Source of the DNA: Clostridia bacterium | GTDB lineage: Bacteria; Bacillota; Clostridia; Oscillospirales; SIG627 | Reading direction: 5' to 3' | Length of the DNA stretch: 64,000 nucleotides | Assembly (NCBI GenBank): GCA_017440805.1 | Contig: JAFSGN010000021.1 | Coordinates: forward strand, 510-64,509 | Shown here: in pieces, positions 2,290 through 47,334 of the stretch | Numbering within the stretch: position 1 is the first letter of the stretch | Layout: each line of letters starts with the position of its first letter | Position numbers and translations under genes: made by a program | The notes under the pieces: generated by a model | Seen by the model: only the letters and a program-made list of their open reading frames with translations | Told to the model about the DNA's origin: nothing | The model's database searches: none

Positions 2290-5200
2290 ATGAAACGCAA
2301 ACAACTTACAATTTTGCTACTTGCATCGTTTTGCTTAATGATTACAGTGACTTTAAGTATGGTGCTATATTATTTTTCCGGCAATTCTACAGTTGGAAGT
2401 GCCGTGTCCGATGACATCGGAGACGGAGTATACGATTTTATTCCGGTTGCCTCCGTAACCCGCAACGGAGAGGAACAAGATAAAGAAGTAAGGGGAGTGT
2501 GGATAACTTCTGCGTATAATATCGACTTTCCTTCAAAACCGGGACTGGATAAAAAAACACTTGAGAGTGAAATAGATTTAATAATTGAAAATGTCTTAAA
2601 ATCGGGTTTGAACACAATATTTTTCCAGGTTCATCCTACTGCGGATGCATTATATGAGTCTGACATTTTCCCTTCCTCCGCATATCTTACAGGGGAGCAG
2701 GGAAAGGAGACTGACGGTGGATTTGACCCCCTTGAATATATTATAAAAAAGGCCCATAAGAACGGAATAAAAATCCATGCGGGAGTAAATCCCTTTCGGA
2801 TTACTGCGGGTTCGCAGGATACATATCAACAGGATATTTCTGCACTGTCTCCCGATAACCCTGCGGTAATTAATAAGAGGTGGACAGTTAAGTATGACGA
2901 CGGAAAACTTTATTTTGACCCCGGTATTCCCGAGGTGAGAGACCTGATTGTTTCCGGCGTTGTGGAGATAGTTGAAAAATATGATGTAGACGGAATATAT
3001 ATAGACGATTATTTTTATCCGTATCCTGTTTATATTACAGATTCAGATAATAAAAAGGTCATTGCAGATTTTGACGACAGTTACAGTTACGGAAAATACG
3101 GTCAGGGAAAGGATAAAGGTGACTGGCGAAGAGAAAATATAAATACTTTTATAAGTTCCCTGCGTGATAGTGTCAAAACTGCGAGAGCCGACTGTATGTT
3201 TGGCGTTTCGTGTGCCGGTATCTGGGCAAATTCCTCAAGCCTTGAAGGCGGAAGCGATACTAACGGAATGCAAAGTTATTTTGATATATATGCAGATTCA
3301 AAGTACTGGATTGAAAACCAACTTATTGATTATATATGTCCGCAGATTTATTGGGATATGAATCATAAATTGGCACCCTTTGATGTCTTGTGCAAATGGT
3401 GGAGCAGTGTCGTTGACGGTACCGGAGTAGACCTTTATATCGGTCATGCCCTGTATAAAAACGAAGAATGGTCGGATAAGACCGAAATAATGCGACAGAT
3501 TGAATTTGCACGGAGTTGGTACGGATATAAGGGAAGTGTTCTGTACGGCTATGGTCAGATAAGAAACAATAATGACGATATTATATCCGGACTTTCGGGT
3601 ATATTTTATGAGGATTATTATCATCCGGATATTGTACCTACAGGAGAAGATGTGACAATCGGAAGTCCTGATAGCGATAGTTATGTAACTGCCGGTAAGC
3701 ATTATATACTCGGAAAGTCCGATCCCGGATATCCGCTTTATTACAACGGTAAAAAAATCCCCCGCACGCAAAACGGATACTTTAATATGTATGTTGATAT
3801 ACATAAAGGAGAGAATAAATTTGATTTTACTCAAAACGGCAAAGTTACTTCGGTAATATTAAAAACCAGGACAGAAACTGCCCCGTCGGGTGTAAAACCG
3901 CTTGAGGGTATGGTCATAAAAAACATTACTCCGTCCAACAATATTATAATATCTCCGGGCAGTGAGATTTCTCTATCCTGTGTTGCACCTGCAGGAAGCA
4001 CAGTTACTGTGTCGCTTGGTGAACAGACACTTACACTGAAACCTCAGGGGACTGCAGTAACATCCCCCGAGTATATGCCGCAGACCTATAAGGGAACACT
4101 AAAACTTCCTGAAAATGTTCCTGGTGATAAATTAAATAATCTGGGTAACATAACATTTACGGCGAAGTATAAAGACCGGATTGCAGTTGAAACGGCACAA
4201 AATGTTACTCTTAAACCGGAAGAGTATAATGTGTTTGCCTGCGTGACCTCCGATTATTCACATCTGAAAAAATCACCCTCATCAAGTTTTTATAATGATT
4301 ACTTGCCTGCATCAGTCGGAATGAGAGATTATATTGAAGGTCTTTCAGACGGTTACTACAAACTGAGGTTTGGTGGATATATTGCCGAACAAAACGCGAA
4401 ACTTGTCGAAAGTACGCTTCAGGATGGTGCAATACTTTCTGCAGTGTGTGAAAAAAACGACCAGAGCACTATAATCCGTTTTGGCGTTACTGAAAATGTA
4501 CCTGTTGACGCAAAGTGTTCAGACGGCATTTTCACAATTACTCTTTATAATGTTTCGGGTGAATATCCTGCTGTTCCTGTTGAATTGTGCGAAAATCCCT
4601 TGTTTTCCCGATGTGATGTGACGGAAGAGGATTTATACACGATTTACAGGTTAAAACTTAAACACCCCGATAATTACTATGGATTTAATGTGCGGTATGT
4701 TGAAGACTCAATAGAATTTACATTCAGAAATCCCACAAAAATTACCGATACAAATCTTCCGCTTGACGGCAAAACGATAATAGTCGATGCGGGACACGGA
4801 GGTAACGACAGCGGTGCACTTGGCTTTTTATCCAGGGGTGAAAATGCTCTTAACGAAAAAGACTTAAATTTACTCACTGCCCAAGCGGTTGCAAAATATC
4901 TCAGAGCGTTGGGGGCAGAGGTGATAATGACAAGGGATACAGACATTACTGTTGAGTTGGAACAAAGAATGCAATTTGTAAATGATACTGACGCGGACCT
5001 TTGTATATCGGTTCATCATAATTCACTGGACTATACAGTAAATGTAAGCAGAATACGCGGATTTGTCGCATTGTGGTGGGATAACAGCGGAGCATTACTT
5101 GCCAAGAGTGTTTCAAAAACAGTAACATCAGTGCTGAGCCGTTATGAGCGAACGCCTTCCTCTCAGAAACTTGCAATGTGCCGAAATCACAAATATCCGT

Positions 5201-5340
5201 CAACACTTCTTGAAATGGCATTTATGACATCTGCAGAAGAGTATGAAAATATAACAAATGACGCAAATATAGATTTGGCAGGCAGGGCAGTTGCCGAGGG
5301 CGTCATTAATTACTATAAACAACAGGAACAATTTATTTGA
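2290..5340 (+). CDS. Large secreted or anchored cell-wall enzyme: N-terminal glycoside-hydrolase-like GHL10 (DUF187/YngK-like) domain fused to a C-terminal N-acetylmuramoyl-L-alanine amidase (Amidase_3)
   Basis: 1016 aa with an N-terminal TM or signal segment. RGVWITS...NTIFFQV...DGIYIDDYFYP is typical of GHL10. The C-terminal IIVDAGHGGNDSGA...CISVHHNS...LLEMAFMTS is typical of Amidase_3. Confidence 0.8.
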   Translation: MKRKQLTILLLASFCLMITVTLSMVLYYFSGNSTVGSAVSDDIGDGVYDFIPVASVTRNGEEQDKEVRGVWITSAYNIDFPSKPGLDKKTLESEIDLIIENVLKSGLNTIFFQVHPTADALYESDIFPSSAYLTGEQGKETDGGFDPLEYIIKKAHKNGIKIHAGVNPFRITAGSQDTYQQDISALSPDNPAVINKRWTVKYDDGKLYFDPGIPEVRDLIVSGVVEIVEKYDVDGIYIDDYFYPYPVYITDSDNKKVIADFDDSYSYGKYGQGKDKGDWRRENINTFISSLRDSVKTARADCMFGVSCAGIWANSSSLEGGSDTNGMQSYFDIYADSKYWIENQLIDYICPQIYWDMNHKLAPFDVLCKWWSSVVDGTGVDLYIGHALYKNEEWSDKTEIMRQIEFARSWYGYKGSVLYGYGQIRNNNDDIISGLSGIFYEDYYHPDIVPTGEDVTIGSPDSDSYVTAGKHYILGKSDPGYPLYYNGKKIPRTQNGYFNMYVDIHKGENKFDFTQNGKVTSVILKTRTETAPSGVKPLEGMVIKNITPSNNIIISPGSEISLSCVAPAGSTVTVSLGEQTLTLKPQGTAVTSPEYMPQTYKGTLKLPENVPGDKLNNLGNITFTAKYKDRIAVETAQNVTLKPEEYNVFACVTSDYSHLKKSPSSSFYNDYLPASVGMRDYIEGLSDGYYKLRFGGYIAEQNAKLVESTLQDGAILSAVCEKNDQSTIIRFGVTENVPVDAKCSDGIFTITLYNVSGEYPAVPVELCENPLFSRCDVTEEDLYTIYRLKLKHPDNYYGFNVRYVEDSIEFTFRNPTKITDTNLPLDGKTIIVDAGHGGNDSGALGFLSRGENALNEKDLNLLTAQAVAKYLRALGAEVIMTRDTDITVELEQRMQFVNDTDADLCISVHHNSLDYTVNVSRIRGFVALWWDNSGALLAKSVSKTVTSVLSRYERTPSSQKLAMCRNHKYPSTLLEMAFMTSAEEYENITNDANIDLAGRAVAEGVINYYKQQEQFI

Positions 5341-5408: not shown

Positions 5409-6659
5409 TTATCTCCAGGAAGAAGGTGTGGATACTATTGCTTCGCCGTACTTTGCAGCGATAAGTCCCAACATACCGCCTTTTGGAGCGGTGGGTGCAG
5501 AGGGGGTGATATCGGACAATTCATTATATACTTCAGCATAAGCAATACTGCGTGAAATCGGGTCGGAATAAACTGTAACAGGATTACCGTCATTACCTTC
5601 GTAGGTTATATACGATTTTGCGGTGATGTAAAGATCGCTGAACCCGTTAAGTCCGCGTAAAACACCGGTGTATATGATGTAACTGTCGTTTTCTCCCTTT
5701 GCATAATAACCGCCAACGGGTATTTTGATTGCATCCGGTGTGTCTACATCAAGTATTTCATCATTGAGAAGAACGGCGGGGTAACAAACGATACCTGCGT
5801 CCAGAATAACAACATCATTGTCATATGTTCCGTTGTCAGGATAGTATATGGAAGCAAAACGCAATTCGTTTGAAGATTTTTTCATCGAACCGACAATGTC
5901 GAAAGAAGGACCGTTATAAGAAGGATTGTAATAGTAACCGGCAGAACCGAGTATGGGGTAAATATCGGTTTTATTTCCGTCTGTAATTTCGTAGTAGTTT
6001 GCGTAAACTTTTGTTCTGTACCAGTTGCTTTCACCGGTCATTTCAAAGGGGATACGATATAATTCGTTGCTGTTCAATGTGGTTGAATCAAAAATATCGC
6101 TACCTGCATTAATCACTTTAACTTCGCCGTCGTTGTATGCTGTTGTATAACTGCTTTCGCCAAGGTCTTTAAGCGCCCATACATCAGTTACGGTTTCGTC
6201 AAAAGGAACGCGTGCAATAGTGGAAACTGAACTAACAGGAGCACCCTCGGGAGTTGTGTTTAAATTGTAAATAGTATATCCGTTCAAAAGCATCGGCTTT
6301 ACAACTTCGGGGTTGTAGTACAAGAGTGTATATGCAGCAGAGACTGTGACTCCGCTTGAAACGCCGGAGAGTTTGACCATAACATCAAAAGCATTTCCGG
6401 ACATGGGAATAACAGAATTGTTTTCAGGGTCATATAATTTTGGAACACTCAGTTTTGAAAAGAGTGTACTATTGGTCGGAACGGCAGACAATGTACCGTG
6501 TGACGCAGAAGTAACCCTGGCAGGATCTATGGCTAAAGTCTGCTCGGCAGCATAAAGCGACGGATTGCCTTCAAAAGTAACTTGTTCTGCAAATGCTGAA
6601 AAAGATAATGCAGAAATCAACAATAATGTGCAAAACAAAAGATTTATGTGTTTTCTCAT
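5409..6659 (-). CDS. Secreted protein of unknown function (N-terminal region possibly cohesin-like)
   Basis: 416 aa with a signal peptide ending SAFA-EQ. The segment GNAFDVMVKLSGVSSGVTVSAAYTLLYYNPEVVKP resembles cohesin-type beta-sandwich motifs. No catalytic motif recognised. Confidence 0.55.
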   Translation of the reverse strand: MRKHINLLFCTLLLISALSFSAFAEQVTFEGNPSLYAAEQTLAIDPARVTSASHGTLSAVPTNSTLFSKLSVPKLYDPENNSVIPMSGNAFDVMVKLSGVSSGVTVSAAYTLLYYNPEVVKPMLLNGYTIYNLNTTPEGAPVSSVSTIARVPFDETVTDVWALKDLGESSYTTAYNDGEVKVINAGSDIFDSTTLNSNELYRIPFEMTGESNWYRTKVYANYYEITDGNKTDIYPILGSAGYYYNPSYNGPSFDIVGSMKKSSNELRFASIYYPDNGTYDNDVVILDAGIVCYPAVLLNDEILDVDTPDAIKIPVGGYYAKGENDSYIIYTGVLRGLNGFSDLYITAKSYITYEGNDGNPVTVYSDPISRSIAYAEVYNELSDITPSAPTAPKGGMLGLIAAKYGEAIVSTPSSWR

Positions 6660-6847
6660 TACAAATATCCTTTCATATGTGTCCTGGGTGGTAAGACATA
6701 AAAATTATACCTGTAAATTATATCATCTATATGTACCCATATGTATGTATAATTGGTAAAAAAAATGTAAACATTGCAAAGTGTGTCGCTACACTTTTGA
6801 AAAAACGACATCACATTTCATAATTGATATAGGTTGAGACCACAGGT

Positions 6848-8755
6848 CTATTGATAGTTTGTAATAACAGTGCCGGGGAAATATGCATAAAGTATCTGGT
6901 CATAAGTATATCCCAGGTCTGCCATATCTTTTGCACCGTACTGGCTCAGACCAACGCCGTGTCCGTGGCCTTTGCCTATAATCTGCAAAGAACTGTCAGC
7001 AGTGACGGGGAGCGTTCCGGAAGAGGTGATTGCATGTAAATTGTCTGAGAAATTCACGGAATCTTCTCCCGATGAGGTGAGCACAGAATATGACGCCTGC
7101 GGAAGAATAGTGTCAAATGCGGAGTTAGCCTTGATTATAGGAATACCTCGTGCAAGAATGAAATTTGCGCTTTTTACATATTTTGAAAGCAGAATTCGTA
7201 TTCTGTCGGCTGTAGTTACCGTGTATTCTGAACCGTCGGCAGATACCAGCAGAACTTTTGTTACATATCCCGAAGGCATTGTTTCAATTATTTTTATATC
7301 TGTAATGGGAGAGGAAATTTTAGATGCATAAGAAGGCTTTGAGAGAATATAGTCTGAAAGTTCTTTCATGGTTACACTTGTTGACCACAGACCGTTGGAA
7401 TAAGAACTGTATTTTTCCCACGGGGTATTGACAGAAACCAGATACGGATACTTGTCGGGTGATGAACCCCAGACATTTGAAGCACTTTCTGTATATCCGC
7501 CCGAAATTGCATGGTAAAAAGTATGGGCGGGCTGGTTGTTGTAGGTAAGTATCAGATTAGTGGTAGCATCTACACAGGCATCCGAATATTCGGTGGAGCG
7601 TTTTCTTCCCATATATGCCTGACAGTGAGTTTCACTGCACATATCAAAGTTCTCGTTTTTGTGGAATGTTGTAAGAGCATATGTTCTTGCAGCAATAGAA
7701 AACGCCTTTATAGTTTCTTCCGGCCAGTTGTTGTGTATTTCGTACGGCACAACACTTTTGATGTAATCATCCATCTTGAGAATATTGATGAGAACCAGGC
7801 CTTCTGAGGAAGCAGTGTATTCGAAAGTACCTGCAAAAATATTTCCGACTGCAGTTGTAATATACGGAAGGGTGTCATATTCGACATCAGGCTCATTTAT
7901 CTCTATTTTTGTGGCCTCGGGACTCAATGCACCAATATGGATATCAACATCAAGCAATGTGTCGTCCTTCTTCTGTGACGAGGGAATGTCGGATTCTTTA
8001 TATCTTGGCGAGATGTTCAAAGGATAATTTTGAGTATCTGCACGAAGAACAATTTTTCCTGTCTGATTGTCAATAACCGTAATATACGAGTCGGAATGGT
8101 ACTTTATCGCAAATTCCCGATTGTATACAGATGCAATTTTAGAATAGCGGTTAAGTGCATTTTCCTCAGATGTAAAATCTCCCAGTCCCAGATAGAGCCC
8201 GCCGTTATGAATAATCGGATATATGGGGTCATATCCGTTTTTTGATATTGCATAGGTCAGTTCCTGCTTGAGAGAATATTCATCCGGGAACACCGAAGTC
8301 ATTCTCAAAGCAACTACAGAGGCTTGTGCATTGGAAGCGGAGACAGTCTCGTATACACCGCTTGAATTTTTTGCTACATGGTTTTCCCGTACAACAGAAA
8401 TGGATTTTACGGGAGATGAATATGACAAAATCTCATTTCCGTTTTCATCACACATGAAAAATTGAAAACCTGTGGCAGAGGAAATTGAGTGATTCATTCT
8501 TAACAAGTCGTAAGAAGAATTTTTGAAAAAAAGAGCAACTCGAATATCTTTGTCAGATAATGGTGAAGCAGAAGATGTCATATCTTCTGCTTCATCTGAG
8601 TACGATATAATGGCATTTTCTTCGGCAGTTTCAATTTCAGCGGCACCTGCACTGAACATAGCACCGATTCCTGCAGTTATAAACACACTAAGCACAAATA
8701 TAGCAGCCAGAACAATAGCCATTATTCTTACAAACTTTTTATTCACGGATTTCAT
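6848..8755 (-). CDS. SpoIID/LytB domain protein (lytic-transglycosylase-type peptidoglycan remodelling enzyme) with a long N-terminal extension
   Basis: 635 aa with an N-terminal TM. FSIAARTYAL...CSETHCQAYMG...TFYHAISGGYTESASNVWG is the SpoIID family core. The start overlaps the upstream gene by 17 nt. Confidence 0.8.
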   Translation of the reverse strand: MKSVNKKFVRIMAIVLAAIFVLSVFITAGIGAMFSAGAAEIETAEENAIISYSDEAEDMTSSASPLSDKDIRVALFFKNSSYDLLRMNHSISSATGFQFFMCDENGNEILSYSSPVKSISVVRENHVAKNSSGVYETVSASNAQASVVALRMTSVFPDEYSLKQELTYAISKNGYDPIYPIIHNGGLYLGLGDFTSEENALNRYSKIASVYNREFAIKYHSDSYITVIDNQTGKIVLRADTQNYPLNISPRYKESDIPSSQKKDDTLLDVDIHIGALSPEATKIEINEPDVEYDTLPYITTAVGNIFAGTFEYTASSEGLVLINILKMDDYIKSVVPYEIHNNWPEETIKAFSIAARTYALTTFHKNENFDMCSETHCQAYMGRKRSTEYSDACVDATTNLILTYNNQPAHTFYHAISGGYTESASNVWGSSPDKYPYLVSVNTPWEKYSSYSNGLWSTSVTMKELSDYILSKPSYASKISSPITDIKIIETMPSGYVTKVLLVSADGSEYTVTTADRIRILLSKYVKSANFILARGIPIIKANSAFDTILPQASYSVLTSSGEDSVNFSDNLHAITSSGTLPVTADSSLQIIGKGHGHGVGLSQYGAKDMADLGYTYDQILYAYFPGTVITNYQ

Positions 8756-9275
8756 ACTCTCCTCTCACCATAATATATATCTCATCGGAAACTGCGATGA
8801 TGCCTCTGCCATCATCGCCCCTCGGAATGAGGCAATAGTGGTAACGAACCAGCGGTTCATCGTTAAGAAGTTCTCCTCCGTCGGTCATGTCACACACACC
8901 CTGGTCCATAAATGCCGATACGGCATTTGCTTTTCCTGAACGGAGAATCAATTCGGTGGGCGAAAGTGCATACAACACCTGACCTTTGGTCAGATGAACA
9001 ACCTCATACACATCGGATTTCGGTACAAGGGGCTGATTGTTGTCTGTCGGTGTATCCTGATTTGCAGTGTCATCGGGAACTTGCGAGGACACATAATTTT
9101 TCTGGATATACAGTACCAGTTCATCTTTTAAACGGGGGGCAAGGACTTCCTCCACATAACTCAGAGTGACCAATGGATCGTTGGATGTATCTGCTGCGTA
9201 AGTGGAAGACACCACAGAAGCACAAATTGCAGAAAAAATAACAATAACGGCAAAAATAAGGTGTATTTTTTTCAT
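8739..9275 (-). CDS. Secreted hypothetical protein (178 aa)
   Basis: Signal peptide (AICASVVSSTYA-AD). SD AAGGAGAG sits inside the end of the upstream gene. The gene is 1 nt from the upstream stop and overlaps the downstream start. Confidence 0.6.
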   Translation of the reverse strand: MKKIHLIFAVIVIFSAICASVVSSTYAADTSNDPLVTLSYVEEVLAPRLKDELVLYIQKNYVSSQVPDDTANQDTPTDNNQPLVPKSDVYEVVHLTKGQVLYALSPTELILRSGKANAVSAFMDQGVCDMTDGGELLNDEPLVRYHYCLIPRGDDGRGIIAVSDEIYIMVRGEYEIRE

Positions 9276-9276
9276 T

Positions 9277-10722
9277 TTACTCTCCTTTGTATGTGAAGTT
9301 GGTTTTTACATAAGAATCAAACTGCCGGTTATTCAAATCATAAAGAGCATCAAAGGATACGCCGGTTTCAAGATTTGAGTGCAGTATACCGTATGACGCC
9401 GCGGCAATTTCGGGATAGGATGTGCCTAATGTAAAAGATAGGTCATAATAAGGATTTTTGAAAATTTTATCTAACATTATGGCAGACGAATTGTCTGTCA
9501 GAAAGTTTGTGACATAATAATCCTTGCAGTAATCGGCATTATTGAATGAAGAGGTTTCGGCAAGACGCTGAAGCACAATGCCCGTAAAATCAGAATCGGG
9601 AATATTGTTTAAAACGCACACCGACTCGGAAGAAGCCACATAGGTACTGTATGGGGCATTCTCATCATATTTTGGGAGGGGCAATATTCCAAAGTTTATG
9701 CCTGCATCGGAAAAGGATTGTGCACTGTCAAGGGTGGCAATGCAAAAAAGTGCATTCCCCTGAACAAACAAATCGTCGCCTGACATTTCTCCATCATTGC
9801 TTACATATAAATTTCCTTCTTTATTATACAATAAACCGCGAATTTTGTCAATAACAATTTGTGTCTTTTCAGTGTTAAAATTCATTTTGGGGATATTCGG
9901 CGGAAGATTGTCGAAAAATTTCTGCCCGCAGGATGCCCACATTGTATCAATAGTGTCATACAGGGAAAGGGATGTGGAAAGACCGTAAAAGTTGCCTTTA
10001 TCGGAAGCGGCGGCGTTTATGCCGGGGATTGTTGATTTGACAAAGGAAATAAAGTTGTCCCAGGTCCACTGACCGTTTTTTTCGATACTGTATAAATTTT
10101 CCCGGATGTTCTCGTTTGCAATATCCTTGTTGAAAAATACACAAACCGATTTATCGGGCATATATGTCAAATCTCCGTATACCCCATGTACAAAGTTTCC
10201 TATGGTAGCAGAATTTACGGCTTGGGTGTCGTAACATTCTGCTGTCAGGTCAACAAAAGGAAGACTTTTTACACTCATGATTTTTTTCTGGGAGACAAAA
10301 ATGGGAAGCAGGGAATGGGGCACCACAAGCAAATCTCCGCAAAAAAGTCCCGAATTGTATCTTTTGTCAAGTTCAACCAGGAAATTATCGGATGTAAGTC
10401 CTTCAAGGGCGGTTATTTTTATATTGAGCTCTTTTTGAATGTTATCATTCCGCTCAAGAATTTTATTCGAAACAGGGGATGAATCCTTTTCCGGCAGGAA
10501 CAAATCTCTGTTAAACATGGCAATGGTAAAATCCCTGCCTCCGAAGTTGTAAACAGGAGAGGAGTCTGCCCCATTATCACTTTCATCCCCGTATATAAAT
10601 TCGGGCGGGACTATATTGGAATCATCAACGGATGACGGGGGCATACTCAATAAACTGCAGGATGTTAAAAACAAAACCGAAATAACACAGGCCATAACGG
10701 AATATACACAAAATTTTGTCAT
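9277..10722 (-). CDS. Lipoprotein resembling an extracellular solute-binding protein (family 1 SBP-like)
   Basis: 481 aa with a lipobox (LFLTSC). GQWTWDNFISFVK and the overall pattern are typical of ABC sugar-type SBPs. No permease or ATPase genes are nearby. Confidence 0.6.
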   Translation of the reverse strand: MTKFCVYSVMACVISVLFLTSCSLLSMPPSSVDDSNIVPPEFIYGDESDNGADSSPVYNFGGRDFTIAMFNRDLFLPEKDSSPVSNKILERNDNIQKELNIKITALEGLTSDNFLVELDKRYNSGLFCGDLLVVPHSLLPIFVSQKKIMSVKSLPFVDLTAECYDTQAVNSATIGNFVHGVYGDLTYMPDKSVCVFFNKDIANENIRENLYSIEKNGQWTWDNFISFVKSTIPGINAAASDKGNFYGLSTSLSLYDTIDTMWASCGQKFFDNLPPNIPKMNFNTEKTQIVIDKIRGLLYNKEGNLYVSNDGEMSGDDLFVQGNALFCIATLDSAQSFSDAGINFGILPLPKYDENAPYSTYVASSESVCVLNNIPDSDFTGIVLQRLAETSSFNNADYCKDYYVTNFLTDNSSAIMLDKIFKNPYYDLSFTLGTSYPEIAAASYGILHSNLETGVSFDALYDLNNRQFDSYVKTNFTYKGE

Positions 10723-10753
10723 ATTTTATCTCCGAAAATAAATGTACAGGTAC

Positions 10754-10781
10754 AGTATAACATAAAACTGTGAATAATCAA
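10754..10781 (-). promoter_or_regulatory. Candidate sigma-A promoter of the lipoprotein / 178-aa / SpoIID-domain operon, overlapped by a DnaA box
   Basis: Minus strand reads TTGATT-16 nt-TATACT, about 30 nt upstream of the SD GGAGA. The box TTATTCACA (10769-10777) covers the -35/spacer junction. Confidence 0.45.
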
Positions 10782-11172
10782 GATTTTATATATTAAAGTT
10801 TTGGTATTTTGCAATCCGAAGAATCGGCTGAACGAGGTTGTACCAAAAGGACAAAAAACGCAAAAAAAATAAAAGCAGATAATAAGCCGATTTTATGGAT
10901 TTAATGTGAACAATTACGAAAAGTAACAAAATATTTTTTCCAAAATTAAAGTAAAACGCAAAAAAATAATCCGCATAATCCACAGAGTGAATGTGGAAAA
11001 CTTTTTGCATTTTGAGCCAAAAAACAGAGTTATACACACAATCCGCAGAGATATCCACAGGTTCACAAGGAATTTTCGGATTAAAACTGTGGTAAAATAC
11101 TGTTGATTGAATTTCAGATGACAAAATAGAACATTATTCGCACAGTTATACCACAGCACAAAAATATGCACA
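10769..11172. promoter_or_regulatory. DnaA-box cluster (at least 5 boxes within one mismatch of TTATCCACA, plus weaker copies)
   Basis: TTATTCACA (10769-10777, minus), TAATCCACA (10976-10984, plus), TTTTCCACA (10992-11000, minus), TTATACACA (11030-11038, plus), ATATCCACA (11051-11059, plus). Weaker copies: TTGTTCACA (10905-10913, minus), TTTACCACA (11088-11096, minus), ATATGCACA (11164-11172, plus). Confidence 0.6.
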
Positions 11173-11237
11173 AACTATTAACAAATATGCCGCAAAACAG
11201 TATTGAAGTATGGCTTATAATTGTATTCAAAATAAAC

Positions 11238-11269
11238 AAAGGAGAACCTTAAATTTAAAGTTCTCCTTT
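11238..11269 (-). terminator. Terminator downstream of the acyl-CoA ligase gene
   Basis: AAAGGAGAAC-cttaaatttaaa-GTTCTCCTTT. Confidence 0.7.
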
Positions 11270-11282
11270 GCAGACTGACAGG

Positions 11283-12983
11283 TTATTTTCCTACAGAATC
11301 GCGTTTTATTTTCTTGGAAGTGGTCTTTTCAAACTCGGTTTGCCGTACAGTAACCGTTTTGATATGCTTGTAAGGGGGGAGAGGTTGACAAGCAAGTTTT
11401 ACCTCTGCTTTTACAGCGGAAAGAATATCTTCAATGTTGTCTTGCTTAACTTTGTCCATATTGGGGAAGACTTCGGCACAAAGAGCAACTTCTTCGCCGT
11501 CCTGATTTTTTTCGGAAAATACAACGACTTCACTTACAAGAGGACTGTTCATTATATATTCTTCAATTTCTTCGGGATAGATATTTTTGCCGTTTGTAAG
11601 AACAATGATATTCTTTTTTCTGCCGGTAATATAAATTCTTCCTTCACTGTCAATCTTACCGTAGTCGCCGGTATAGAACCAGCCGTCGCGAAGGACTTTT
11701 TCGTTTTCTTCCGGCTTTTTATAATATCCCATCATAACTGTTGGACTCTTGACGCATATTTCACCTATACCGTCTACGGGATTGTCAATTCTTACCTCTG
11801 CACAGGGGAGAGGATAACCAACCGATTCCAGCACATTGTCATCAAGACGGTTAACCGAAACAAGAGGGGAACATTCGGTTATGCCGTATCCGTTTATAAG
11901 CGGTATGCCTATGGAATTAAACAATGCACCGATTTCAGGACGGATGGGGGCACCTCCCGCAACGATTTGTTTGAGTTCACCGCCAAAGGCAGAAAGAACG
12001 CTTTTGAAAAGTATTCTTCTCAAATCTATTCCCATTTTGAGAAGAGTGTTTGAAAACTTTATGAGAACTTTGAGCATCTTGTCTTTACCGCTTTTTTCTG
12101 CAGATGCCCATATTCTGTTGTAGAAACTGTCCGCAAAGGCGGGAACAAGGAAGATGTATTCGGGCTTGAACTCCTGAAGATTTTTCAGGGTGTTTCTCAG
12201 TGAGTCGTTTATACATATTGTAGAGTGATGATGGAGAGATACCAATATCCCGATTACCGCTTCGTAGGTATGATGATAGGGAAGCACCGAAAGACAGGTT
12301 TCGTAAATTGTTTCAACACGGAGACCGTGATAAATAACGGAAACGAGATTTTTCTCGGAAAGCATTACACCTTTTGCAAGGCCGGTTGTACCGGATGTGT
12401 AAACCAAGAGACGCATCTGTTCAATATCGTTGACATTATCCAGATATTCGGTATAACCGCTGTCCAGAAGCGCTTGGCCTCGTTCCGATAGTTTTTCGTA
12501 TGAAAGAAAATTGTCATTTTCCTCTGCTTGGTCAAGTCTTACAAAGTACTTGATGCCGGGAAGTTTATCCAAGTTTTCTGTTATGTCCTTTTCAAATTTT
12601 TTGGAGAAGAACATAATTTCACTGTCACTGTCGTTGACAATACGCACAACACTGTCAAAAGGAAGTTCTTTATCAATCGGAACAAAAACTCCCGGAGAAT
12701 TGAGAACCGCCAGGTATACTGTAATCCATTTGTATGAGTTGTCACCCACCAAAGCAATATGCTTATCACCAAATCCCATTTTTCTGAGTTCCGAACCAAT
12801 AGCACGGGTACGGCGTATAAAATCGCTGTAAGTAACAGATTCAATATTATCACCGTCTACACGGTATTTAAATGCAATTTTTTCGGGAACTTCTTTTTGG
12901 GCAATTTCCAGCATTTCTTTTATTGAACCGAATTTTGTGGGATTAAGATACTGAAACTCTTTTTTCTTCATAATATCCTCCAT
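11283..12983 (-). CDS. AMP-dependent synthetase/ligase (long-chain fatty acid-CoA ligase type)
   Basis: 566 aa with the AMP-binding motif LVYTSGTTGLAKGVMLS, plus YGITE and TGDYG...GRKKNII motifs. Confidence 0.88.
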   Translation of the reverse strand: MEDIMKKKEFQYLNPTKFGSIKEMLEIAQKEVPEKIAFKYRVDGDNIESVTYSDFIRRTRAIGSELRKMGFGDKHIALVGDNSYKWITVYLAVLNSPGVFVPIDKELPFDSVVRIVNDSDSEIMFFSKKFEKDITENLDKLPGIKYFVRLDQAEENDNFLSYEKLSERGQALLDSGYTEYLDNVNDIEQMRLLVYTSGTTGLAKGVMLSEKNLVSVIYHGLRVETIYETCLSVLPYHHTYEAVIGILVSLHHHSTICINDSLRNTLKNLQEFKPEYIFLVPAFADSFYNRIWASAEKSGKDKMLKVLIKFSNTLLKMGIDLRRILFKSVLSAFGGELKQIVAGGAPIRPEIGALFNSIGIPLINGYGITECSPLVSVNRLDDNVLESVGYPLPCAEVRIDNPVDGIGEICVKSPTVMMGYYKKPEENEKVLRDGWFYTGDYGKIDSEGRIYITGRKKNIIVLTNGKNIYPEEIEEYIMNSPLVSEVVVFSEKNQDGEEVALCAEVFPNMDKVKQDNIEDILSAVKAEVKLACQPLPPYKHIKTVTVRQTEFEKTTSKKIKRDSVGK

Positions 12984-47004: not shown

Positions 47005-47334
47005 TATAATATCGTCGTTTGATGTGCGATGAAGCGGGAGGTTGCTGCTTATGCAGGTAATTTCCGCAGAGTATGTCCGAATTAACCGGGCGACAGCAGA
47101 ACTTAGCTGAACACAAAATATTAATTGTTTTGGATAACCCATGGGTATTCCTGTGCGGTTCCGTGTGGCAATTTGTGTTTGTGTAACCCCGAATTTTAAG
47201 GAAACTTAAAGTTCGGATTTATTATTGGGTGGTATGAAACACCCGGATGCGTTGTTCAGAATTTTCTGGGTCCCCAACAAATATCTGCATTGCTCCGGTG
47301 CGGGCGTGCAGCAATTTTTGAAGGAGGCAAAATC
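47005..47334 (+). promoter_or_regulatory. S10-operon promoter (-10 at 47005-47010) and a roughly 320-nt structured 5' leader
   Basis: TTGCTT-17 nt-TATAAT with TGg extended -10. The leader has no ORF. It contains a terminator-like hairpin at 47189-47216 (CCGAATTTTAAG-gaaa-CTTAAAGTTCGG, then ATTTATTATT) and a weaker hairpin plus T4 at about 47289-47319, just before the SD. Confidence 0.45.

Follow-up and report, generated by a model that had tools for sequence, protein, structure and literature searches.

A clade-conserved array of DnaA-box-like sequences, and candidate extra-origin DnaA-box cluster, upstream of a lipoprotein/p178/SpoIID-LytB operon in uncultured Clostridia

In Bacillus subtilis, six clusters of DnaA boxes lie outside the replication origin (oriC), mostly in promoter regions, and jointly restrain initiation (PMC3245932). 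Some of them also regulate the adjacent gene, as at sda, ywlC, and yydA, and no structural feature was found to separate the clusters that control initiation from the others (PMC3245932). Extra-origin clusters are reported to be common in Firmicutes and to be typically origin-proximal (PMC3245932), and B. subtilis DnaA acts cooperatively at multi-box regions, using boxes with up to three mismatches to TTATNCACA (PMC4447404). DnaA-box clusters outside the origin are known from few model organisms, and no replication-control work on uncultured Oscillospiraceae/Ruminococcaceae of animal guts was found. Here, a 64-kb stretch of contig JAFSGN010000021.1 from such a bacterium was analyzed (hereafter, the window), in which the intergenic spacer at 10723-11282 carries an array of nine DnaA-box-like 9-mers. 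The array is enriched beyond chance, under purifying selection, fixed in its spacing, and linked to the adjacent operon, and it lacks signatures of an origin, an RNA, or a coding sequence. We infer DnaA as the binding protein, and it is quite probably the ligand of the array. The broader reading, held with somewhat better than even confidence, is that the spacer holds a clade-specific extra-origin DnaA-box cluster at which a DnaA complex would act on the operon promoter, with DnaA being sequestered as a side effect.

A sequence-only reading of the window had singled out this spacer for its dense DnaA boxes, and the sites that it listed are present. These are five one-mismatch boxes (10769-77, minus; 10976-84, plus; 10992-11000, minus; 11030-38, plus; and 11051-59, plus), three copies given as two-mismatch (10905-10913, 11088-11096, and 11164-11172), the TAATCCGCA/TAATCCACA tandem at 10967-84, a second CAATCCGCA at 11039-47, and the direct repeat AAAACGCAAAAAAA (AAAACGC-A7) at 10855-68 and 10953-66. 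The 11164-11172 copy and the AAAACGC-A7 repeat are specific to the window and are not conserved. The array that is shared with related genomes comprises the following:

10871..11163, no strand assigned: conserved core, nine DnaA-box-like 9-mers in fixed register (alignments; nhmmer profile)
10905..10913, minus strand: b1, TTGTTCACA, one mismatch to TTATNCACA
10967..10975, plus strand: b2, TAATCCGCA in the window and TTTTGCACA in most orthologues, zero gap to b3
10976..10984, plus strand: b3, TAATCCACA (clade: YAATCCRCA), repeat family D1
10992..11000, minus strand: b4, TTTTCCACA (TTATCCACA in L092), fits TTWTNCACA in 7/7 genomes
11030..11038, plus strand: b5, TTATACACA, invariant in 7/7 genomes and a perfect match to TTATNCACA
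11039..11047, plus strand: b6, CAATCCGCA (clade: CAAYCCRCA), weak box, family D1 with spacings of 9 and 63
11051..11059, plus strand: b7, ATATCCACA in the window and TTTTCCRCA in orthologues
11088..11096, minus strand: b8, TTTACCACA (clade: TKYACCACA), inverted repeat I10 with b9
11147..11155, plus strand: b9, TATACCACA (clade: TRTACCACA), inverted repeat I10 with b8

Three or four of these boxes are strong (TTATACACA, two TTTTCCACA, and TTTTGCACA), and their neighbours are weaker (YAATCCRCA, TTGTTCACA, TRTACCACA, and TTYACCACA). A strong box with an abutting YAATCCRCA-type box forms a motif that occurs twice, 63 bp or six helical turns apart: b5 directly abuts b6 with zero gap, and b6 sits 63 bp from its counterpart b3. 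Boxes b3 and b4 are convergent with a 7-bp gap between them, and the inverted pairs b4/b7 and b8/b9 each span 59 bp, with a mutual offset of 96 bp. The most variable of the nine is b2, while b1 is the same in five of seven genomes and reads TTATTCACA in L008 and TTCTTAACA in L010.

This density is far from what composition predicts. Twenty-seven boxes with at most one mismatch occur in the window, and five of them fall within the 290 bp at 10769-11059. Among 5000 first-order Markov sequences of the spacer's own composition, the mean was 0.19 boxes and the maximum was 3, and none reached the five observed, in agreement with the earlier estimate of well under one box by chance. The description of the spacer as AT-rich was likewise accurate (GC content of 0.305, versus 0.40 in the flanks). 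The 22 other intergenic spacers of at least 100 bp in the window (7.6 kb in total and similarly AT-rich) contain three boxes altogether. Across 1.3 Mb of related clostridial loci the box density is 0.31 per kb, and at least three boxes per 300 bp are found in the orthologous spacers alone, with the exception of one cluster in L030. The L030 cluster (three boxes in 300 bp) lies within coding sequence and was set aside as chance. Additionally, an nhmmer profile of the core (alignment A3) searched against 1.4 Mb recovered only window positions 11163-10871 and the orthologous spacers, with no second copy. The spacer thus has several boxes within a few hundred base pairs of intergenic DNA, beyond chance, as a DnaA-box cluster (DBC) should.

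Orthologous loci were compared from seven further lineages (L008, L009, L010, L092, L093, L094/L095, and, in part, L011), and the box alignment comprises seven full-length spacers and is gap-free at the boxes. The positions and orientations of all nine boxes (10905-11155) are kept in these related uncultured Oscillospiraceae/Ruminococcaceae genomes (seven to eight). The lineages are well separated: identity to the window proteins is 49-58% for the lipoprotein, 59-72% for the SpoIID/LytB protein, and 83-89% for the acyl-CoA ligase encoded on the other side of the spacer. The ligase gene is saturated at its four-fold degenerate positions, where pairs of genomes agree at 38-50% and 10 of 169 positions (5.9%) are invariant among six genomes. 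Because the boxes are kept while neighbouring synonymous sites are saturated, the comparison demonstrates purifying selection on the boxes, as judged from aligned sequence. Invariant columns make up 59 of 81 in the boxes versus 26 of 218 among the other core columns (7 genomes; Fisher p about 8e-24), a test that is partly circular in that b9 was chosen with conservation in view, the other eight boxes having been chosen from the window sequence alone. The majority fraction of non-box columns (0.66) is close to that of silent sites (0.64). The pooled logo, T-[T/A]-[A/T]-T-C-C-[A/G]-C-A, is most variable at position 3 and fixed at positions 8-9, and in sequence terms it is the DnaA-box consensus. 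Spacing is similarly constrained: inter-box sequence drifts and inter-box length is kept, such that b9 and b1 are 241-243 bp apart in six of seven genomes, with L093 the exception at 234 bp. The spacer outside the block of array and promoter varies, from 75 to 188 bp on one part and from 40 to 65 bp on the other. Overall, the proposal of a non-random DnaA-box cluster with no accompanying dnaA was borne out, and phylogenetic footprinting reinforces it.

The spacer is bounded on both sides by minus-strand genes, with the stop side of the acyl-CoA ligase gene at one end and the start side of the lipoprotein gene at the other. The features that frame the array are as follows:

9277..10722, minus strand: first operon gene, lipoprotein with a weak solute-binding-protein (SBP) fold signal (Pfam, signal peptide, orthologues)
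8739..9275, minus strand: second operon gene, secreted or anchored 178-aa protein (p178) without a family match
6848..8755, minus strand: third operon gene, 635-aa SpoIID/LytB-domain protein (PF08486)
10754..10781, minus strand: sigma-A-type operon promoter, TTGATT, 16 nt, and TG-extended TATACT
10769..10777, minus strand: TTATTCACA within the promoter spacer, intact in the window, decayed to TTATTAACA in L008, and missing from the other six lineages
11236..11271, minus strand: intrinsic terminator of the acyl-CoA ligase gene, a 16-pair stem followed by a T-run (inverted repeat I1)
11283..12983, minus strand: upstream neighbour, acyl-CoA ligase (AMP-binding)

The ligase terminator is the upstream limit of the regulatory region, and the ligase gene has no functional tie to the array. 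An inserted bioY gene, encoded on the opposite strand, parts the ligase gene from the array in L092 (8947-9465) and L093 (2916-3470), and the array still adjoins the operon. Therefore, the array belongs with the downstream operon. Among all loci examined, the array is seen only where the SBP-p178-SpoIID/LytB operon is present; a scan of a genome collection with the SBP-like protein returned mostly distant paralogues in other contexts, which served as background. The p178-type gene is paired with a SpoIID/LytB gene even in distant relatives (33-34% identity), in which a p176-SpoIID/LytB pair follows nrdR and an LCP-family gene, beside a divergent spoIVA:

L096 4040-7974 and L097 3938-8055: nrdR / LCP-family / p176 / SpoIID-LytB gene string

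No DnaA-box cluster was found upstream of the nrdR-type operon in L096 or L097. In these relatives, the nrdR string ties the same cell-wall module to a replication-related regulator in another way. At L098, which encodes a SpoIID/LytB orthologue with 72% identity, only the last lipoprotein codons (...NFTYKGE*) are found upstream of the p177-SpoIID/LytB genes (4655-4860), beside an opposite-strand DUF4080 gene; either the contig is chimeric or the region has undergone a deletion or rearrangement.

The promoter is conserved together with the array. A TGnTATAMT -10 element is present in 8/8 lineages and a TTGAAA -35 element in six, and the -10 element sits 137-139 bp from b1 in six lineages, versus 151/154 bp in the other two (the window and L008). 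The boxes thus lie close to a promoter and keep their spatial relation to it, as is expected of a DnaA-regulated promoter. The conserved promoter itself contains no conserved box, the closest being about 125 bp upstream of its -35 element. The earlier proposal of DnaA control of the downstream operon therefore stands in general, in that the array moves with the operon at a fixed distance from its promoter, but not in its detail: the box at 10769-10777, to which it had pointed, is absent from 6/8 lineages and is probably outside the conserved element. Naming the target a SpoIID-domain operon was similarly right as to the domain (TIGR02669 scores 207 bits for the 635-aa protein), although the protein falls under the spore_II_D equivalog cut-off for true SpoIID and the promoter looks sigma-A-type rather than sporulation-specific. 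The lipoprotein has matches to SBP_bac_8 and SBP_bac_1, each under its cut-off, and a signal peptide with an LTSC lipobox.

Several further elements lie around b1 and between the array and the promoter. Between the array and the promoter, an inverted repeat, GGTTTTACTTT-N~20-TTTGGTAAAACT, is present in six lineages (L009 at about 9870-9920; L010, L092, L093, L094, and L011), and the window has one at 10799-10848 with different arms (TTTTGGTA / TACCAAAA). This repeat could be the operator of a second regulator or a hairpin. A related motif, GTTTTAC, also follows b2. The non-box 9-mer at 10885-10893, AGCCGATTT on the plus strand (AAATCGGCT toward the operon), is shared by nearly all lineages, at a distance of about 20 nt on the downstream side of b1, and in the window a second copy at 10822-10829 gives a 17-nt inverted repeat (10813-29 / 10885-901). 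A conserved block just upstream of b1, TGTKATTRTAC (A3 columns 240-250; window about 10919-10929, minus), can be read in most orthologues as a -10 element with a TG extension (TGTTATTAT), the match being weaker in the window. This block may mark an additional promoter further upstream, which would put b1 at the transcript start. A small transcript running from the TGTTATTAT extended -10 to a terminator was considered and rejected, as the hairpin and T-run are inconsistent between genomes.

Readings other than extra-origin control by DnaA were also weighed. Boxes in both orientations, with their spacing kept and the inter-box sequence free, have the classic look of an oriC, the spacer is AT-rich, and a replication origin or second origin module separated from dnaA had been ranked lowest among the initial interpretations. 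However, GC skew does not change sign at the spacer in any of four genomes: it is +0.059 to the left and +0.097 to the right in the window, and it is negative to either side in the flipped loci L008, L009, and L010. Because skew on the plus strand is still positive across the minus-strand genes left of the spacer, the plus strand is leading throughout and forks traverse the spacer; GC and AT skew agree on this assignment, and 41 of 61 larger open reading frames (ORFs) are on the plus strand. The basal unwinding system consists of a DnaA box followed, within at most 16 bp, by at least three DnaA-trios and an AT-rich unwinding element (PMC8287927). No conserved DnaA-trio run was found next to any box (for b9, 11 nt downstream were scored and the remainder was judged by eye), and as NTN runs match random expectation and lack a conserved position between genomes, the basal unwinding system is absent. 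No Pfam DnaA domain was detected among the 36 of 60 larger ORFs scanned (the ribosomal-protein operon region and some others being left out), and no DnaA signature motif occurs in the six-frame translation of the window, as the claim that the window lacks dnaA had implied. No dnaN was found in the window either, and both genes are missing from the 10 kb to each side in the orthologous loci. The spacer therefore shows no skew switch, no basal unwinding system, and no dnaA/dnaN adjacency; it lies away from an oriC/dnaA region, the origin interpretation is contradicted on all three counts, and it was ruled out as highly improbable. A structured non-coding RNA or long 5' leader, with the conserved blocks as paired stems, deserves just as little credence. 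RNAalifold can form stems from the inverted boxes (TGTGGTA with TACCACA, and ATGTGGAAAAC with GTTTTCCACAT), but covariation speaks against them (an unfavourable term of +0.61), the columns in the stems either do not vary or show one-sided changes (TGYGG against a fixed CCACA; the window b7 change is unmatched in b4), and the sole conserved promoter is downstream of the array. With a best Rfam E-value of 0.23, far under gathering scores, the RNA candidate was dismissed on covariation and Rfam together. The spacer had also been called ORF-free, which is essentially so in that no ORF is consistent among orthologues, although two mechanical minus-strand ORFs of 112 and 85 aa are present; a small protein was rejected because the longest ORFs in the orthologous spacers disagree in strand, frame, and length. 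A plasmid or phage origin or mobile element was rejected as well: no plasmid similarity was found, the search for phage similarity gave three marginal 55-nt matches only, and the flanks are chromosomal housekeeping genes in conserved synteny.

Two explanations come closer to that of a DnaA complex acting on the operon promoter. The array could be an operator for a different DNA-binding protein, with a motif (TTTTCCRCA / YAATCCRCA / TACCACA) that is merely DnaA-box-like. A simple DnaA consensus predicts neither the purine alternation at position 7 in b2, b3, b6, and b7, nor the unusual TACCACA common to b8 and b9, nor the near-invariance within each box of the supposedly free position 5; these features would fit such a protein, as would the conserved non-box motifs beside the array. 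In contrast, three boxes fit the stringent TTWTNCACA in every genome, b5 is a perfect TTATACACA, the b4 substitution of TTTT to TTAT is one that DnaA-box degeneracy allows, and DnaA is present in essentially every bacterium and is a known binder of such arrays. The sequence was also compared by eye, no tool being used, with several other motifs. Spo0A (TGTCGAA), Rex (TTGTGAA-N4-TTCACAA), and TnrA/GlnR (TGTNA-N7-TNACA) do not fit, nor do WalR (TGTWAH-N5-TGTWAH), CRP-type (TGTGA-N6-TCACA), parS, and the Noc site. A different protein is an improbable binder, and somewhat less plausible than a site that controls DnaA itself, by titration or by a change of nucleotide state, with its position at the operon being incidental. 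Such a site, for which DBC[yydA-yycS], datA, and DARS are models and which the earlier reading had raised as a titrating cluster, is also unlikely. Fixed spacing over about 250 bp and paired orientations exceed the needs of a simple operator, and a location on the leading strand, upstream of the S10 operon along the fork path, would fit the origin-proximal position that is typical of clusters (PMC3245932). However, the distance between array and promoter is as constrained as the array, the array is found with this operon alone, and in B. subtilis only 2/6 clusters have a measurable effect on initiation (PMC3245932). Along the leading strand, the S10 operon is reached 36 kb beyond the spacer; on the left side, about 12 kb of contig remain.

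Regulation of the operon by DnaA, the reading favoured here, has its own difficulties. The window array has no perfect TTATCCACA, b8 and b9 have A rather than T at position 4, and position 7 switches between A and G in b3, b6, and b7; positions 4 and 7 are usually deemed important for DnaA binding in E. coli. The gap of about 125 bp between the nearest conserved box and the -35 element is far for direct contact with RNA polymerase. Moreover, because AAATCGGCT and a GTTTTAC...GTAAAAC dyad are conserved between the array and the promoter, additional factors are suggested. All of these points weigh against the proposal.

If the proposal holds, DnaA would first occupy the strong boxes b5, b4, b7, and b2, and further DnaA protomers would then be recruited cooperatively to the abutting weak boxes b6 and b3, as at other multi-box regions. 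The fixed geometry would correspond to a defined, stereospecific higher-order nucleoprotein complex, which could modulate transcription of the lipoprotein, p178, and SpoIID/LytB genes, by either activation or repression, according to the level or nucleotide state of DnaA, from about 140-150 bp upstream of the -10 element. As a by-product, several DnaA molecules would be kept off oriC. To our knowledge, this operon is not known as a DnaA target. A more ambitious and unlikely version takes the array for an architecture-locked DnaA assembly site coupling initiation status to peptidoglycan remodelling in spore-forming gut Clostridia, at which DnaA would switch the SpoIID/LytB operon (in more distant relatives, the gene pair is instead co-transcribed with nrdR) and would itself undergo a datA/DARS-like modulation; if true, it would be the first such element in Clostridia defined by conserved box geometry. 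The locus matters in several respects. Saturated silent sites beside retained boxes amount to natural mutagenesis, giving a map of which boxes and gaps matter, and the array may provide a regulatory link from the replication initiator to a cell-wall (SpoIID/LytB) operon. If DnaA is not the binder, the array marks a new and strongly selected operator system.

The window comes from the chromosome of an uncultured, spore-forming clostridium and encodes SpoIVA, amidases, housekeeping enzymes, and pheST, with an S10 ribosomal-protein leader at 47020. Proteins identical to those of the window recur on contigs from several metagenomes, and relatives are labelled as Ruminococcaceae or Oscillospiraceae metagenome-assembled genomes. 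The operon (5409-10722) and the ligase gene (11283-12983) are transcribed head-on to the inferred direction of replication. Further left, a single plus-strand gene (2290-5340) encodes a 1016-aa protein in which a GHL10 glycosyl-hydrolase-like domain is fused to an Amidase_3 domain. On a near-identical contig from another sample (L002 15383-18437), the fusion is called as two genes of 576 and 421 aa, owing either to a strain-level frameshift or stop variation or to an assembly error. A metagenome scan with the pattern TTGTGTGTATAACT-N22-30-GTTTTCCACA gave one match, at the unrelated locus L091 (OMLO01026540.1). There, at about 2150-2300, an inverted repeat of about 70 nt surrounds TTGTGTGTATAACT and is followed by GTTTTCCACATT, beside a tRNA gene; this may be another DnaA-box-bearing element in a different organism.

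Of the known elements, the array is similar to datA and DARS1/DARS2 of E. coli in being a non-origin cluster, and there the orientation and spacing of a few boxes are critical. The convergent b3/b4 pair resembles the oppositely oriented DARS core boxes. In contrast, there is no sequence relationship, none being expected and none sought beyond box arrangement, nine boxes are present here versus 3-5 there, and datA and DARS2 require IHF or Fis, which are absent from Firmicutes. The activity of datA is to stimulate DnaA-ATP hydrolysis, and that of DARS is to stimulate ADP release. Firmicute oriC regions (incA/B/C) share boxes in both orientations, abutting tandems with the better box first, kept spacing, and free inter-box sequence; unlike them, the array has no skew switch, no nearby dnaA/dnaN, and no conserved DnaA-trios or unwinding element by a box. 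The array resembles DnaA-regulated promoters (B. subtilis sda, dnaA, ywlC, and yydA; Pseudomonas aeruginosa gidA / oriCII) in lying upstream of a housekeeping-type promoter and in having a target tied to the cell cycle or to the envelope and development (PMC3245932, PMC13438810). It differs from them in the stretch of about 125 bp that separates the last conserved box from the -35 element downstream. Similar to the B. subtilis clusters, it consists of intergenic consensus and near-consensus boxes away from dnaA, which often lie at or before the promoter of a neighbouring gene (PMC3245932, PMC4447404). However, the flanking genes are others and there is no sequence homology, and whereas the B. 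subtilis work found that cluster positions shift between Bacillus species, here box number, order, orientation, and spacing hold across a clade with saturated silent sites. The kind of element is thus already known, and its lineage, its target operon, and its strictly conserved architecture are new.

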